A stretch of DNA of 32,000 bases. It comes from Candidatus Aenigmatarchaeota archaeon (GTDB lineage Archaea; Aenigmatarchaeota; Aenigmatarchaeia; PWEA01). The notes beneath the pieces are model-generated. The model saw nothing but the letters and a program-made list of their open reading frames with translations, did not search any database and was not told the DNA's origin. The DNA is taken from contig JBKHHD010000002.1 of the NCBI GenBank assembly GCA_046539325.1, forward strand, positions 30,426 to 62,425. The letters run 5' to 3'. Numbering within the stretch: the first letter of the stretch is position 1; every line of letters begins with the position of its first letter. This document shows positions 11,063 to 31,656 of this stretch, one piece after another. The translations under genes were made by a program, and so were the position numbers.

Positions 11063-11404
11063 TTACTTAATCAGAGGCAAGTGGCCTGTGACCTTGTCTA
11101 TTTTTTCCTCCGATCCTGGACCCACGGCCAGAGCCGTCGTGGTTCCCTGAGGAATTTCTGTCCTTCCGGCGTCCTTCACGAGGTAAGCAGGTACGCCTAT
11201 CCCCTCGGCATTCCTCTTGATTTGGAATAGCTCTTCCTCGTCTTCCACGCCAACTACCACCTTCTTCTCACCTGATTTTTCCCATTTTCTAAGGTTCTTC
11301 TCACTGACCTTACGGTATGCTCCCAGAGAGGCGTGGGCCGCCTGCGCAGCCGCCTTCCCCTTGCTGAGGTTCAGATCCTTTCTCACCACGATAACCTGTT
11401 TCAT
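11063..11404 (-). CDS. pth2: Peptidyl-tRNA hydrolase, archaeal/eukaryal Pth2 type
   Basis: MKQVIVVRKDLNLSKGKAAAQAAHASLGAY...VKDAGRTEIPQGTTTALAVGP. Confidence 0.9.
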   Translation of the reverse strand: MKQVIVVRKDLNLSKGKAAAQAAHASLGAYRKVSEKNLRKWEKSGEKKVVVGVEDEEELFQIKRNAEGIGVPAYLVKDAGRTEIPQGTTTALAVGPGSEEKIDKVTGHLPLIK

Positions 11405-11440
11405 AGAAACAATTAAAAAGAAACGGACTTATATTGTTGT

Positions 11441-22350: not shown

Positions 22351-22399
22351 GGAACTCCGGTACTAGCTTATTTAATTGTTGAAACCAAAGATATTTTCT

Positions 22400-23677
22400 A
22401 TGAAATTTGAAAGTTTGAAGGGTTTCCGGGACTTTTTGCCCGAGGAGATGGTTGCAAGAAGGGAGGTCTTCGATAGAGTTGAGAATGTTGTAGGGAAGTT
22501 CGGCTTCAGGGAGATAGATCTTCCTTCCCTGGAAAAAAGGAAGCTGTTCGAGGTGAAGAGCGGGGAAGAGCTAGTTGACCAGACATACAGCTTCAAGGAC
22601 AAGGGCGAAAGGAATGTAACCTTGATTCCTGAGCAGACTCCGTCCCGAGCCAGACTGTTAGCGCAGGAGAAGTCGTTGAACCGGCCCGTGAAGTGGTACT
22701 CCACATCGAAGCGCTGGCGCTACGAGCAGACGCAGAAGGGAAGGCTGAGGGAGTTCTATCAAACGGATATAGACATCTTCGGCGCGAACAGCGTGGAGGC
22801 AGACGCGGAAATACTTGCAGTCCTGGTCGAGATTATGGACGAGCTGGAGGTATTGGACGCTGTGGACGTTCTCGTAAACGACAGAAACCTTATGGAAGAG
22901 GTACTGGAAGAAGAAGGCACCGAAGAGAAGAGAAAGGTCATGGAAATTATAGACGACAAGGAGAAGATGAAAAGAGAAGAGTTTATGGAAGAGCTGATGG
23001 ACATCGGACTTGGCAAGGAGGAAAGTGAGAGGATAGAGGAGCTCACCTCTATCAGCGGGCCGATTGGACAGAAGCTGGGGGAGGTAGAAGAGCTTGTATC
23101 AGAGGATAACAAAGCTCTGGAGAGGATGATGGAGCTGAAGGAAATTCTCAAGAGCTACGGTGTTCTTGACAAGGTAAAGCTGGACATGTCGATAGTCCGC
23201 GGCTTGGACTACTACACAGGCCTCGTGTTCGAAGTTTTTGATAAGAAAGGTGAGCTGCGCGCTATATGCGGCGGTGGTAGGTACGACGAGCTTGTTGAGC
23301 TTTTCGGCGGTGAAAGTGTTCCTGCAGTTGGCTTCGCGATAGGGGACGCGGTTATCGAGGAGCTTATGAGAAGAGAAGATGTTTGGCCTGAGGAAGAGCT
23401 AGAAACGGACGTGTACGTGCTTCCTGTATCTGATGAAATCCGCGAGGAAGCTACGGACATTGTCAGAAAGTTGAGGGACGAAGAGCTGATTGTTGAAACC
23501 GACCTCAAGAACAGGAACGTTTCGGCGCAGCTGAACTACGCTAATTCGATAGGCGCAGACAAGGTAATTATAGTTGGTGAAAGGGACCTGAAAGAAGGTA
23601 AGGTAACAGTAAAAGACATGGAGTCGGGAGACGAAAAACTAATAAGTTTGGAGGAAGTAGTTGAGAAAGTCAAATAA
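22400..23677 (+). CDS. hisS: Histidine--tRNA ligase
   Basis: GFRDFLPEE, LIPEQTPSRARL, RYEQTQKGRLREFYQTDIDIFG (motif 2) and GGGRYDEL (motif 3). ATG 22400 lies ~25 nt downstream of GCTTATTTAATTG. Confidence 0.95.
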   Translation: MKFESLKGFRDFLPEEMVARREVFDRVENVVGKFGFREIDLPSLEKRKLFEVKSGEELVDQTYSFKDKGERNVTLIPEQTPSRARLLAQEKSLNRPVKWYSTSKRWRYEQTQKGRLREFYQTDIDIFGANSVEADAEILAVLVEIMDELEVLDAVDVLVNDRNLMEEVLEEEGTEEKRKVMEIIDDKEKMKREEFMEELMDIGLGKEESERIEELTSISGPIGQKLGEVEELVSEDNKALERMMELKEILKSYGVLDKVKLDMSIVRGLDYYTGLVFEVFDKKGELRAICGGGRYDELVELFGGESVPAVGFAIGDAVIEELMRREDVWPEEELETDVYVLPVSDEIREEATDIVRKLRDEELIVETDLKNRNVSAQLNYANSIGADKVIIVGERDLKEGKVTVKDMESGDEKLISLEEVVEKVK

Positions 23678-23682
23678 CGTGT

Positions 23683-23756
23683 GGCCGGGATGGTGTAGCG
23701 GTTTAGCACGAGGGCCTGTGGAGCCCTTAGCCCGGGTTCGAATCTCGGTCCCGGCC
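23683..23756 (+). tRNA. tRNA-His (anticodon GTG) with genome-encoded G-1
   Basis: G-1 at 23683. Acceptor GCCGGGA/TCCCGGC. D-arm GTGT..GCAC. Anticodon arm AGGGC-CTGTGGA-GCCCT. T-arm CCGGG-TTCGAAT-CTCGG. Discriminator C pairs with G-1. No encoded CCA. Confidence 0.95.
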
Positions 23757-23824
23757 CTTTTTCTTGACCTTTAAATAGTTCCAATGTTAATCTAGAGCTG
23801 CGCGGTTTTTGGTGGGGTTGCCGT

Positions 23825-23836: not shown

Positions 23837-25480
23837 CCTCACTCTGAATTACTTTACGCTGTTAAGGCGTGCCGGCGTAGTTGAGCCTTGGACGTTCTGA
23901 CGTCCAGCGATGACCAAAATTCCAGGCACGAACAAATGATGAGGAAGGGAGTTCAATCTCTTCTGATGTAGGAAACCCGAGAATGAAACCGAGAGGTTTC
24001 AGTAGCCAAATGTAGTTGGTGTGACGCGAGGACTAGTTTACTCTCTTACCAATTCCGGTTGATCCTGCCGGAGGCTACCGCTATCGGGATTCGATTTAGC
24101 CATGCGAGCCGAGGGTGGTTTATCCGCCCGGCGGACTGCTCAGTAACACGTAGTCAACCTCCCCTCAGGACGAGTATAACCCCGGGAAACTGGGACTAAT
24201 ACTCGATAGGAAAGGGATACTGGAATGTTCCCTTTCTGAAATGTTCCGACGCCTGAGGATGGGACTGCGGTGGATTAGGTCGTTGGGGGTGTAACGGACC
24301 TCCAAGCCTATAATCCATACGGGCGTTGAGAGACGGAGCCCGGAGACGGACTCTGAGACACGAGTCCGGGCCCTACGGGGCGCAGCAGGCACGAAACTTT
24401 TACAATGCGTGAAAGCGCGATAAAGGGATCCCGAGCGCCTTGGCATTGCCAAGGCTTTTTTGGAGTGTAAAAAGCTCCACGAATAAGGGGTGGGAAAAAC
24501 GGGTGCCAGCCGCCGCGGTAATACCCGTGCCCCAAGTGGTGACCACGATTATTGGGCCTAAAGCGTCCGTAGCCGGCCGGATGGGTCCTCAGTGAAATCC
24601 TGCGCTAAAACGTAGGACTTGCCGGGGAAACTATTCGGCTTGGGACCGGGAGAGGTCGGGGCTATTCCTGGGGTAGCGGTAAAATGCTGTAATCCCAGGA
24701 AGAGCGCCTGTGGCGAAAGCGCCCGGCTGGAACGGCTCCGACGGTGAGGGACGAAAGCCAGGGTAGCGAAGGGGATTAGATACCCCCGTAGTCCAGGCCG
24801 TTAACGATGCCCGTTTGGTGTAGCATCTCCTACGTGGAGGCGCTGTGCCGTAGCGTAGGTGTTAAGCGGGCCGCCTGGGGAGTACGTCCGCAAGGATGAA
24901 ACTTAAGGGAATTGGCGGGGAAGCACCACAAGCGGTGGAGGCTGCGGTTTAATTGGATTCAACGCCAGGAACGTTACCAGCGCTGACAGCATGATGACGG
25001 TCCGCTTGAAGAGCGTACCTGAAGCGCTGAGAGGTGTTGCATGGCCATCGTCAGCTCGTACTGTGAAGCGTCCGGTTAAGTCCGGTAACGAGCAAGACCC
25101 ACATCCCTAGTTGCTATCGTGTCCTTCGGGACGCGAGCACTCTAGGGAGACCGCCTCCGACAAGGGGGAGGAAGGTGTGGGCGACGGTAGGTCTGTATGG
25201 CCCGAATGCGCTGGGCTACACGCGGCCTACAATGGTCGGGGCAGCGGGTTGCGACTCCGAGAGGAGGAGCTAATCCCAAAACCCGGCCTTAGTTCGAATC
25301 GAGGGCTGAAACCCGCCCTCGTGAAGCCGGAATCGCTAGTAAGCGAGGGTCACTATCTCTCGCTGAATACGTCCCTGCTTCTTACACACACCGCCCGTCA
25401 AGCCATCCGAGTGGAGCCTTGATGAGGCTTGGGAAATTTTCTCAGGTCTAATCAGGGCTCCGCAAGGAGGGCTAAGTCGT

Positions 25481-26294
25481 AAATTAATTGCGACCTCGGA
25501 CCGAAAGGTTCGAGAAAACCCGGCTGTATGCTGGAAACTCCACTCATACCAGGCTGCCGGAATTGTCCTAAGCTTTTTATCAAAAGCACGGGCAATGTAA
25601 GGTAGAGAGGTCTGGTCGTTGTGGACAATCAGCAGGGAAGCTCACTACTCTGACCTGAAAAGGTGAGGTATAGCCCCTCAGAGACTGCACGCCGGCCCCT
25701 AACGGAGCTGATTGGATGTCACAAAGCTACCTCAAGGGAATACTTCACGATGCCACGGAAAGGAAGTACACCTACCGAATTTCACAAAAGAACAAAGATT
25801 TCATTGAAAAGCTGGCCGAAATGATTCGAGATCTGGGCAAAAAAGCCTGGATTTAAGAAGAAGGCAACCGAGGAATATACGTAGTGGAATTTAGTAAGAG
25901 TGGTCTCAAAAAGCAAGAAATCGAAACAAGACAAGAAAAAAGAGACTATATCCGTGGCTACTTCGACGCTGAAGGAAGCGTTCCAAGGAGTCCTGAAGTG
26001 CGACCTTACATTTACTTCGCACAACAGGACAAAAAAGACCTAAAGAAAGTGAAGAAATTCATTGAGGAGTTTTAAATTGAAACAGGCAAACTCCACAGAC
26101 CCAGTAAGGAGTCTGATCCAGATTACTGGAGATTTTACATCTCCACAAAGGATCACAAAAAATTTGCCAGAGAAATAGGCTCTTGGCATCCAAAGAAAAA
26201 TCAGCTGCTGAGGGAGATGAGACAGTCCACGCCTCGATGCGAGTCGGGGTGACACTTTCAAAGTGTCCGAACACCATTATGGTGTGAGCATGTG
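25481..26294 (+). mobile_element. 814-nt intron in the 16S rRNA gene (group-I-like; junction ambiguous by 2 nt because of a duplicated AA)
   Basis: P1-like pairing GUCGUAA (25476-25482)/UUGCGAC (25488-25494) with a U:G wobble at the splice site. Last intron nucleotide is G 26294. GAAA-capped hairpin at 25495-25514. R-like UCAGAGACUGCAC at 25678-25690 and S-like GAUGCGAGUCGG at 26236-26247. Two P9-like hairpins at 26251-26285. Confidence 0.7.
25716..26252 (+). pseudogene. Double-motif LAGLIDADG homing endonuclease ORF with two in-frame TAA stops
   Basis: One frame reads MSQSYLKGILHDAT...KKAWI*EEGNRGIYVVEF...YIRGYFDAEGSV...KKFIEEF*IETGKL...WRFYISTKDHKKFAREIGSWHPKKNQLL. Stops are at 25854-25856 and 26073-26075, with no frameshift. 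Confidence 0.75.
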
Positions 26295-26335
<41 letters not shown>

Positions 26336-26404
26336 AATTCATACCAACTACAGGCTAAAATTTCGGGTTTCCTAAAGAACATACGGGCCCGTGGTCTAAT
26401 GGCA

Positions 26405-26441
26405 ATGCAGAACCGTGTTCCGATTTACGGTTTGCACCGGA
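26405..26441 (+). other. 37-nt insertion in the D-loop of tRNA-Ala (putative intron; junction ambiguous within duplicated AATG)
   Basis: Removing it gives the D-arm GTCT-AATGGCAA-TGAC. The insert folds as TGCA-G-AACCGT(G)..(T)ACGGTT-TGCA. Confidence 0.6.
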
Positions 26442-26480
26442 ATGACGTCGCCCTTGCAAGGCGAAGACTGTGGGTTCAAA

Positions 26481-26576
26481 AGAGACCACTTTGGAATGAA
26501 AACACTTTACTGAAAACGGAGTTTTCGTAAAGATCCAAGCTTCGTTTGAAATATTTTCCAAAGGGTTTTCTGGAAT
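26481..26576 (+). other. 96-nt insertion in the T-loop of tRNA-Ala (putative intron)
   Basis: Removing it restores GTGGG-TTCAAAT-CCCAC. Internal helices are CTTTGGAA (26489-96)/TTCCAAAG (26556-63) and a 12-bp hairpin at 26505-26532. Confidence 0.6.
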
Positions 26577-26616
26577 TCCCACCGGGTCCACCAGTACTGT
26601 TCGCGATTTTAGAAAG

Positions 26617-26625
26617 TTTTAAATA
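26617..26625 (+). promoter_or_regulatory. TATA-like box between tRNA-Ala and 23S (possible internal promoter)
   Basis: GAAAGTTTTAAATAAC. Similar in form to the other stable-RNA TATA boxes in this window. Confidence 0.3.
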
Positions 26626-26960
26626 ACTTCACTGTTACAGGACTTTTGAACCTGATACAGGCCTGATAAGATGACTGGAAAGTAAGACTTGAAGGATTAG
26701 TTGCTTACTTCAGTCTGTTCTTTTTCGTTTTGTTGTATAGTTTTAATGTGCAGCTCTCTACCGCAGGTAGAGGGTGAAGAGTGATAAGGGACGATGAATT
26801 GAGTTTTGTGAACACCCTTTGATCCCGAGAGGGAGATGATAGTAAGACGATCACAAGAGTCCCTTGGATGAGCTGTTATACGTCAAGTCTTGGAAACTTA
26901 TGTTTCCAGTTTGAAATCCGAGAGGATTTCAAGACCCACCAGCCAACTAGGCTGGAATGG

Positions 26961-29929
<2,969 letters not shown>

Positions 29930-30033
29930 GCATTCCAGCCTGGGCTAAAGGTGGATCTTGAAATCAAGGAACACAAACTTAGAAACAGAGGTTTCCAAGA
30001 CTTGGCGTATAGCAGCTGAAGCTCTTTTCTCAT

Positions 30034-30067: not shown

Positions 30068-30523
30068 GTGGTGAGCTGGAGAGGGACCACCGGGATAGTT
30101 TGGATGAGGTTGTTTTCCTTCACAGGAAACACCCTTGTATTCCCGGAGGAAGCTCCTCCCACCCGTTGTGCTGTAAAAGTGCAACGAGGCCCAGGCTCGC
30201 AAGAGTCCGTCCTGAGAGGGAACGGAACAGGGAACAGAAACGATACCCCCGCGCTGGAGCGTTGAAAGCTGAGAAGGCACGGAGGGATGGAACGTACCCT
30301 GATCTGGGTGGTGCAAGACCAAATAGGCTCCGGGAAATGGATGTGCCTTGCACGTCGGTCTCTTGGAGCGGGTAGGTCGCTATTTGGAGTCCGTGAGGGC
30401 TTCAAACTTGGAAGCATCTGCTTCCGAGAAGATGAATGTCCCGAAGACCTGACATGGACGCGGACTTCGTCCACGTCGTTTTTGGGTCCGAACAGAAGGA
30501 GGGCTACTCCCAGCACACCACAC
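30068..30523 (+). ncRNA. rnpB: RNase P RNA (archaeal type-A-like)
   Basis: P1/P2 pairs GTGGTGAGCTGGAGAG (30068-) with CTCCCAGCACACCAC (-30521). CR-I GGAGGAAGCTCCTCCCAC. P4 is AGC[U]CCUCC/GGAGGGCU with the conserved bulged U. GCAAGACCAAATAGG and GGGTAGGTCGC blocks are present. CR-IV AGATGAATG. CR-V ACAGAAGGAGGGCTAC. Confidence 0.9.
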
Positions 30524-30554
30524 TATTTTCTCGCTTGGATTTTAGGCACTACAG
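30521..30554 (+). repeat. Direct repeat copy 1 (overlaps the RNase P RNA 3' end)
   Basis: CACTATTTTCTCGCTTGGATTTTAGGCACTACAG. Confidence 0.8.
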
Positions 30555-31365: not shown

Positions 31366-31622
31366 TTATCTATCACCTCCCCCTTGACTTATCTATCATA
31401 CTTGCATCTTTTACTAAAAAAGGTACTAAAGATATAAAAGATTAAGTTTCTTAAAATTCTTCTTCTGAACTAGGAAAGAACTAGAATATACGCCCAAACC
31501 AATACCCATAGAAGAATAAAGGATTTCAAGGACTACAACTTTTAAATAGATTCGTTTGTAAAACTATAGTGGAAGGTAACACAGGCCAGTGATCTAGGCG
31601 GTGAGGTACTTCCAGAAGATTG

Positions 31623-31656
31623 CACTATTTTCTTTCATGGATTTTAGGCACTACAG
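31623..31656 (+). repeat. Direct repeat copy 2
   Basis: CACTATTTTCTTTCATGGATTTTAGGCACTACAG. 30 of 34 positions are identical to copy 1, including a 19-nt exact core TGGATTTTAGGCACTACAG. Confidence 0.8.

Follow-up and report, generated by a model that had tools for sequence, protein, structure and literature searches.

We examined a 32,000-nt stretch of a Candidatus Aenigmatarchaeota contig (JBKHHD010000002.1), referred to here as the window, in which a HisRS gene is followed by an rRNA operon with the gene order tRNA-His, 16S, tRNA-Ala, 23S and RNase P RNA (Table 1). The HisRS shows 100% identity to a protein of a MAG labelled Candidatus Aenigmatarchaeota archaeon. The next named relatives of this HisRS are Nanohaloarchaea, at no more than 69% identity, and the DNA of the related Ca. 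Aenigmatarchaeota used for comparison derives from assemblies of hypersaline soda-lake sediment, a setting that has been described previously (PMC6146748). The true 3′ end of the 16S is at 26335 (sequence GGAUCACCUCC) and the 16S-23S spacer extends from 26336 to 26961.

Table 1 Features of the rRNA operon and of the tRNA-Ala(UGC) in its spacer, in window coordinates
Feature	Position	Strand	Sequence, pairing or remark	Source
HisRS gene	22376-23677		just upstream of tRNA-His
tRNA-His	23684-23757			ARAGORN/Rfam
16S stem BHB, 5′ half	24001-24024	+	AGU-AGCC-AAA-UGUAGUUGGUGUGA; predicted cut after 24009
16S	starts 24052			Rfam
16S stem BHB, 3′ half	26339-26362	+	UCAUACCAACUACA-GGCU-AAA-AUU; predicted cut after 26358
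tRNA-Ala exon 1 (positions 1-21)	26385-26404	+	acceptor 5′ strand, U8 G9, GUCU, D-loop AAUGGCA	sequence
tRNA-Ala intron 1 (21/22), 38 nt	26405-26442	+	D-loop/D-stem junction; relaxed BHB
tRNA-Ala exon 2 (positions 22-59)	26443-26480	+	UGAC, G26, anticodon arm, AGACU, GUGGG, T-loop UUCAAA	sequence; ARAGORN cloverleaf of spliced product
tRNA-Ala intron 2 (59/60), 96 nt	26481-26576	+	strict hBHBh′ motif	BHB scan
tRNA-Ala exon 3	26577-26593	+	U60, CCCAC, CGGGUCC, A73, encoded CCA	sequence
Acceptor stem	26385-26391 with 26583-26589		GGGCCCG with CGGGUCC, including G3:U70 (G26387 with U26587)
D-stem	26394-26397 with 26443-26446		GUCU with UGAC; three Watson-Crick pairs and U13.U22
Anticodon arm	26448-26464		UCGCC-CUUGCAA-GGCGA; anticodon UGC at 26455-26457
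Variable loop	26465-26469		AGACU
T-stem	26470-26474 with 26578-26582		GUGGG with CCCAC
T-loop halves	26475-26480 and 26577		UUCAAA and U
Discriminator; CCA	26590; 26591-26593		A; CCA
D-loop site, central helix	26399-26402 with 26437-26440		(A)UGG with CCG(G); fourth pair is an invariant A.G
D-loop site, 5′ bulge	26403-26405		CAA
D-loop site, intron helix	26406-26411 with 26431-26436		UGCAGA with UUUGCA
D-loop site, 3′ internal loop	26441-26443		AAU; 2x3 (or 3x4)
T-loop site, central helix	26475-26478 with 26571-26574		UUCA with UGGA
T-loop site, bulges	26479-26481; 26575-26577		AAA; AUU
T-loop site, inner helix	26482-26485 with 26567-26570		GAGA with UUUC
23S stem BHB, 5′ half	26936-26959	+	CCACC-AGCC-AAC-UAGGCUGGAAUG; predicted cut after 26946
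23S	26962-29927			Rfam
23S stem BHB, 3′ half	29931-29954	+	CAUUCCAGCCUG-GGCU-AAA-GGUGG; predicted cut after 29948
RNase P RNA	30071-30518			Rfam

Rfam places a false 16S end at 25525 because of an 814-nt group I intron (25481-26294), which follows U1498 (E. coli numbering) and has G as its last nucleotide. This intron scores 30.6 bits on Rfam Intron_gpI, a partial match under the gathering score of 50, and contains a gene for a LAGLIDADG homing endonuclease that is disrupted over three frames; once joined, its fragments match LAGLIDADG_3 (E 2.4e-15). The 16S of the related loci L003 and L004 lacks the intron, as does that of L005 to the extent that its exon junction was read, while an intron at SSU/1498 has already been reported for Nanohaloarchaeota and Micrarchaeota (PMC6125680). 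At the other end of the operon RNase P RNA lies directly 3′ of the 23S in the same orientation, a layout kept in L003/L004 (L003 16888-17318). A 5S gene might be expected in this place downstream of the 23S; none was found in the window. A 57-nt direct repeat (copies at 30498-30554 and 31600-31656, 79% identical), whose first copy consists of the RNase P RNA 3′ end and downstream sequence, encloses a 1.1-kb AT-rich segment. The alignment of the window with L003 stops just 3′ of RNase P RNA and the segment appears to be missing from L003. It resembles what would be left of an element that had inserted at the 3′ end of RNase P RNA. In a further compared locus, L001, a homologue of the window tRNA-His (11312-11409) with an insertion of about 26 nt in its T-arm has the anticodon GGG instead of GUG and adjoins a LAGLIDADG-like ORF. 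It obtains 39.3 bits from Rfam, is missed by ARAGORN and may be either another intron-containing tRNA or a pseudogene.

An interrupted tRNA-Ala(UGC) in the 16S-23S spacer

Inspection of the spacer identified all parts of a tRNA-Ala(UGC) in the right order and colinear within 209 nt (26385-26593), in agreement with an earlier note on this DNA which had listed these elements, each of which we found in its place. The G3:U70 identity pair, A73 and the alanine anticodon UGC are those of a tRNA-Ala. Also as previously noted, the anticodon loop of the window gene is uninterrupted at the canonical position 37/38 and the exons are instead separated by two non-canonical introns, one in the D-loop and one in the T-loop. 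A split or permuted tRNA gene was rejected because the three exons are colinear within the 209 nt. The unconstrained minimum free energy fold of the unspliced sequence is an extended cloverleaf with two extra hairpins protruding from the D-loop and the T-loop (-72.8 kcal/mol, z = -3.58, 0/200 shuffles as stable).

The earlier note had anticipated that standard finders would miss the gene, which is the case for both programs utilized here. ARAGORN called no tRNA in the spacer with or without its intron options and Rfam cmscan gave no tRNA match there at either the gathering threshold or E<=10; the tRNA-Ala in the spacers of L003 and L004 was likewise unseen by ARAGORN or Rfam. Presented with the spliced sequence, ARAGORN called tRNA-Ala(tgc) with a score of 119.8, the same call being made for 75-, 76- and 77-mers, and scored the intron-less tRNA-Arg and tRNA-His of the window at 121.6 and 124.1 respectively.

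Self-splicing group I and II introns have a detectable catalytic core and are hundreds of nucleotides long. Such a nature was rejected for the tRNA insertions, which are only 38 and 96 nt in length and gave no intron-family match within 26385-26593 (Rfam, E<=10). The tRNA-Trp intron of Euryarchaeota carries a C/D-box guide RNA, and we also considered a guide of this type within the 96-nt intron. It was rejected because no snoRNA or sRNA family matched this intron (Rfam, E<=10) and the only box-like elements visible by eye, AUGAAAA and CUGA with a 7-nt spacing, are degenerate. The sole Rfam overlap with the 96-nt intron, CRISPR-DR13 at E=9.9, was taken as a chance match.

The archaeal splicing endonuclease EndA recognises a bulge-helix-bulge (BHB), in which it cleaves each three-nucleotide bulge after the second nucleotide. 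We enumerated BHB motifs by reading each strand 5′ to 3′ as a helix, four central nucleotides, a three-nucleotide bulge and a further helix, with the cut set after the second nucleotide of the bulge. The 16S leader forms a strict BHB with the spacer (21 paired positions, including a 14-bp helix) and the 23S is enclosed by a second strict BHB with a 12-bp helix, the two stems having an identical central helix, AGCC/GGCU. The recovery of these textbook strict motifs around both rRNAs validates the BHB geometry, and their presence on either side of the 16S and 23S in the same transcript indicates that the organism uses EndA on the transcript containing tRNA-Ala. The predicted 3′ cut of the 16S stem falls 26 nt upstream of tRNA-Ala in sequence that is conserved in L003/L004.

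The same enumeration identified a strict hBHBh′ motif of 5+4+4 pairs at the T-loop intron, in which the T-stem serves as outer helix, although the earlier note had held that no strict BHB could be drawn. The predicted cuts remove 96 nt and restore the 7-nt loop UUCAAAU. This motif is among the three top-scoring motifs of the regional scan (13 paired positions) and is the only one of the three to have four central pairs at tRNA-compatible ends. A strict BHB was present somewhere in 89/300 shuffled 209-mers, with a mean of 0.4 per sequence, and the occurrence of a BHB by itself was rejected as evidence because about 30% of shuffles contain one. The T-loop BHB, however, sits at the single T-loop-restoring position pair among approximately 17,000 scanned.

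The D-loop site is less regular. The D-stem pairs GUC/GAC are followed by two unpaired nucleotides and then by a 3-bp helix, UGG/CCG, beyond which the clean three-nucleotide 5′ bulge stands between two helices, while at the 3′ splice site there is an internal loop instead of a clean bulge. A strict BHB for this intron was sought by enumeration and only relaxed forms were found. The site fits the relaxed class described in PMC4090602 and is predicted to be an EndA substrate. An A-run leaves up to 2 nt of uncertainty in the boundaries, and products of 75, 76 or 77 nt are possible. Applied to the D-loop, the BHB ruler gives a first cut at CA|A and, at a distance of four pairs, a second at AA|U, and the D-arm of the intron-less L003 gene, GGCA|GGAC, is equal in length to the predicted spliced GGCA|UGAC. 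On the basis of the ruler, the intron-less L003 gene and the paralogy of this intron with one at 37/38 in relatives (see below) we favoured a 38-nt intron and set aside boundaries giving 36 or 37 nt; the most likely junction is 26404^26443, with a predicted product of 75 nt including CCA. The earlier note had removed 37 and 96 nt to leave 76; its 96 nt stands, whereas the D-loop length is best placed at 38 nt and the product at 75 nt. The junction reads it had suggested, 26404^26441 and 26480^26577, in fact remove 36+96 nt and leave 77 nt rather than 76.

Conserved exons and variable introns in related genomes

Related spacers were obtained by two routes. The contigs of HisRS homologues P0002, P0004, P0005, P0007 and P0012 end at or before the rRNA operon and only P0011 gave a spacer; the syntenic operon of L003/L004, with the order HisRS, tRNA-His, 16S, spacer, 23S and RNase P RNA, was reached via one HisRS homologue. 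A scan of public genomes and metagenomes for the exon 2 21-mer GGCGAAGACTGTGGGTTCAAA, which is exact in all relatives found, provided L005/L012, L009, L010 and L011. Two further matches to the 21-mer were discarded, L007 being an unrelated tRNA with anticodon GCC and a common T-arm and L008 a eukaryote-like coding sequence. This resulted in six distinct alleles, namely those of the window, L003/L004/L006, L005/L012, L009, L010 and L011.

The alleles differ in their introns. Given in the order D-loop (21/22), anticodon loop (37/38) and T-loop (59/60), lengths in nucleotides are 38, none and 96 in the window; none, 11 and 55 in L003; 30, 34 and 49 in L005; 37, 34 and 28 in L009; 38, 40 and 27 in L010; and 29, none and 28 in L011. 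The D-loop and 37/38 introns are thus present or absent depending on the allele, the D-loop intron being the one missing from L003/L004, while the 59/60 intron occurs in 6/6 alleles with differing interiors and a maintained BHB. Pairwise identity between the six alleles is 96-100% for exons, 23-95% for introns and 64-92% for the flanking spacer, and the neighbouring HisRS is 74-82% identical between these lineages. Exon 3 is invariant, and exon 1 is identical in 3/6 alleles with a single U/C change in the D-loop of the others.

These comparisons bear on the possibility that the locus is a decaying pseudogene, an old spacer tRNA broken by two insertions whose function is supplied by a tRNA-Ala(UGC) elsewhere. 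The failure of ARAGORN and Rfam to call the gene, its weak D-stem and the imperfect D-loop splice motif would all be in keeping with decay, but in a pseudogene exon changes would accrue at the rate of the flanks, and the exons are far more conserved than either introns or flanks. The insertions also sit exactly where their removal gives canonical loops, and the splice motifs are maintained by compensatory changes. The T-loop motif is found at the same position in 6/6 alleles; four have the strict form, and in L003 and L005 the central helix contains a single A.G mismatch. In a T-arm alignment of the six alleles 92.5% of cells were paired vs 28-61% in slid controls, and four pairs had changed on both sides; the covariation score was reached by 1/500 shuffles. 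Purifying selection on a tRNA that is spliced and functional would be expected to give this pattern, and a pseudogene would not. The concern over a pseudogene raised in the earlier note is countered by the conserved exons and retained splice motifs of six alleles, and we consider decay very improbable.

The second alternative is that EndA splices only the T-loop intron, the D-loop insertion being removed in some other manner or retained as an expanded D-arm hairpin. The D-loop 3′ site has no canonical bulge and its covariation is thin, with one pair changed on both sides and 201/500 shuffles doing as well; EndA types of strict specificity are moreover reported to cut relaxed motifs poorly (PMC5829648). 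Against this, the clean 5′ bulge, CA(A/C), and its two flanking helices are conserved in five alleles. The fold was predicted independently in 5/5 carrier alleles, and the motif was paired in 86.7% of aligned cells vs 22-57% in slid controls. The L003 allele, which lacks the intron, has exactly the predicted junction length, and the 37/38 intron, a paralogue of the D-loop intron, has the same ends. A retained 38-nt hairpin between A21 and position 22 would also disturb the contacts between the D-loop and the T-loop. Exclusive splicing of the T-loop intron therefore appears no more credible than decay, and splicing at both sites is preferred. Least credible by a wide measure, and in effect already refuted by the comparison of alleles, is a chance arrangement of tRNA-like fragments within a structured spacer, for which the frequency of strict BHBs in shuffled sequences could be cited, but against which stand the presence of all tRNA-Ala identity and structural elements, the recurrence of the same exons in five other alleles, a BHB at the single T-loop-restoring position pair in 6/6 alleles and the location of the gene at the usual site of archaeal spacer tRNA-Ala.

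Taken from sequence comparison, 26385-26593 is very probably a functional, spliced tRNA-Ala(UGC) gene with two introns. The earlier note had left the mechanism open; the strict T-loop BHB and the relaxed D-loop site favour, as the reading with most support, the usual protein-dependent BHB splicing of archaea, one of the two sites being relaxed. The rRNA operon would be transcribed as a single precursor in which EndA would cut four motifs, the 16S stem, the 23S stem, the T-loop intron (after 26480 and 26576) and the D-loop intron (after 26404 and 26442). An RtcB-type ligase would then join the three exons and RNase P and RNase Z would trim the tRNA ends, giving a 72-nt tRNA body with the encoded CCA (75 nt), G3:U70, A73 and the anticodon UGC. 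Neither EndA nor RtcB was identified among the ten window proteins (Pfam) or in the Pfam listings of the syntenic loci. Cleavage and ligation, the exact D-loop junction and the acceptance of the relaxed D-loop site by the host EndA are what we infer from these motifs.

Relationships among the introns

The D-loop and 37/38 introns of the relatives resemble one another, with 27/37 and 27/40 identical positions in L009 and L010 (z 5.5-6.2, 0/500 shuffles), and the window D-loop intron resembles the 37/38 intron of L009 (z = 4.0). Both introns follow an exon ending in GCA, begin with AU(A/C)CGAAACC and end with ACCGGA(A/G), the ends of the 37/38 copy being fixed by the 7-nt anticodon loop. The D-loop and 37/38 introns are paralogous, which suggests that introns have been copied within the gene. 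L003 has 11 nt at 37/38, ending in CAGGAG; this intron may be a relative that has lost its interior. The T-loop intron showed no similarity to the D-loop or 37/38 introns (z -0.1 to 1.4), and no intron copies beyond orthologues were found elsewhere in the window or the compared loci. A 16-nt segment of the window T-loop intron (26493-26508) is the exact reverse complement of L003 13276-13291, within the intron of L003/L005, which suggests that an inverted duplication lengthened the hairpin of the T-loop intron and so brought the intron from about 50 to 96 nt.

Since the 21/22, 37/38 and 59/60 introns are variously combined among alleles with near-identical exons, one tentative reading, which we rate somewhat below even, is that this DPANN clade has in its spacer tRNA-Ala a hot spot at which BHB introns have recently moved, with transposition within the gene and growth of the T-loop intron by inverted duplication. 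The D-loop intron would have arisen from the 37/38 copy or the reverse, possibly by reverse splicing through EndA and the ligase. Across the six alleles, introns can be followed in detail as they are gained, lost, copied and enlarged against fixed exons, which bears on how archaeal tRNA introns spread.

Comparison with known systems

Were the tRNA-Ala not called, tRNA-Ala(UGC) would seem to be missing from the genome and the annotation would show a spacer without a tRNA; in a reduced DPANN genome such an omission could be mistaken for loss of the gene or for dependence on a host. Incomplete DPANN tRNA sets have indeed been attributed to undetected disrupted genes (PMC5829648). With its four predicted EndA substrates on one transcript, the locus also offers a compact means of testing which substrates an uncharacterised DPANN endonuclease accepts.

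Archaeal multi-intron tRNA genes are already known as a kind; the present gene is a new member and a good example of it, not a novel phenomenon. Genes with three introns and relaxed HBh′/hBH sites are established, mainly from Thermoproteales and Nanoarchaeota (PMC4090602, PMC4033280); according to these two papers, which cite Sugahara 2007/2008, the tRNA-Pro(UGG) of Pyrobaculum islandicum has introns at 25/26, 37/38 and 56/57. Like the multi-intron tRNAs of Thermoproteales, the genes described here have two to three short introns of no more than about 100 nt in the D-arm, anticodon loop and T-arm, with protein-dependent splicing (predicted in our case) at a mixture of strict and relaxed (HBh′/hBH) motifs. 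Published non-canonical sites include 20/21, 22/23 and 59/60 (PMC4090602); 59/60 is thus a listed archaeal insertion site, whereas the D-arm site 21/22 falls between 20/21 and 22/23. The host, moreover, is a member of the DPANN (Aenigmatarchaeota) and not a crenarchaeon, and the gene is the spacer tRNA-Ala of an rRNA operon.

Within the DPANN, the EndA variant epsilon2 of ARMAN-2 has been linked to disrupted tRNA genes (PMC3239211, PMC3488258) and lineages with an L3-loop alpha4 EndA show more such genes (PMC5829648), non-canonical and relaxed sites needing EndA forms with specific loop insertions (PMC5829648; also PMC3239211). The window gene belongs to the same superphylum, in which non-canonical and multiple introns are expected, although neither its lineage nor the gene itself features in those descriptions. 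In text searches we came across no previous account of a spacer tRNA-Ala with introns or of Nanohaloarchaeota tRNA introns, which is weak negative evidence. In Thermoproteales, similar introns at different tRNA positions have been interpreted as intron transposition (Fujishima et al. 2010, as cited in PMC4033280 and PMC4090602), and the 27/37 positions shared by the 21/22 and 37/38 introns are comparable, but here both copies reside in one gene beside the same exon GCA, the lineage is DPANN and a single gene has been sampled.

Spacer tRNA-Ala operons with BHB stems around 16S and 23S are known from archaea such as Haloferax (PMC7714728), with which the present operon shares the order 16S, tRNA-Ala(UGC), 23S and strict BHBs around both rRNAs. 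It differs in that the spacer tRNA holds two, and in relatives up to three, BHB introns and in that the operon runs on into RNase P RNA rather than 5S. What is particular to this locus is its host lineage, the position of the gene in an rRNA spacer, the presence of paralogous introns inside a single gene and the fast turnover of introns among alleles whose exons are fixed.
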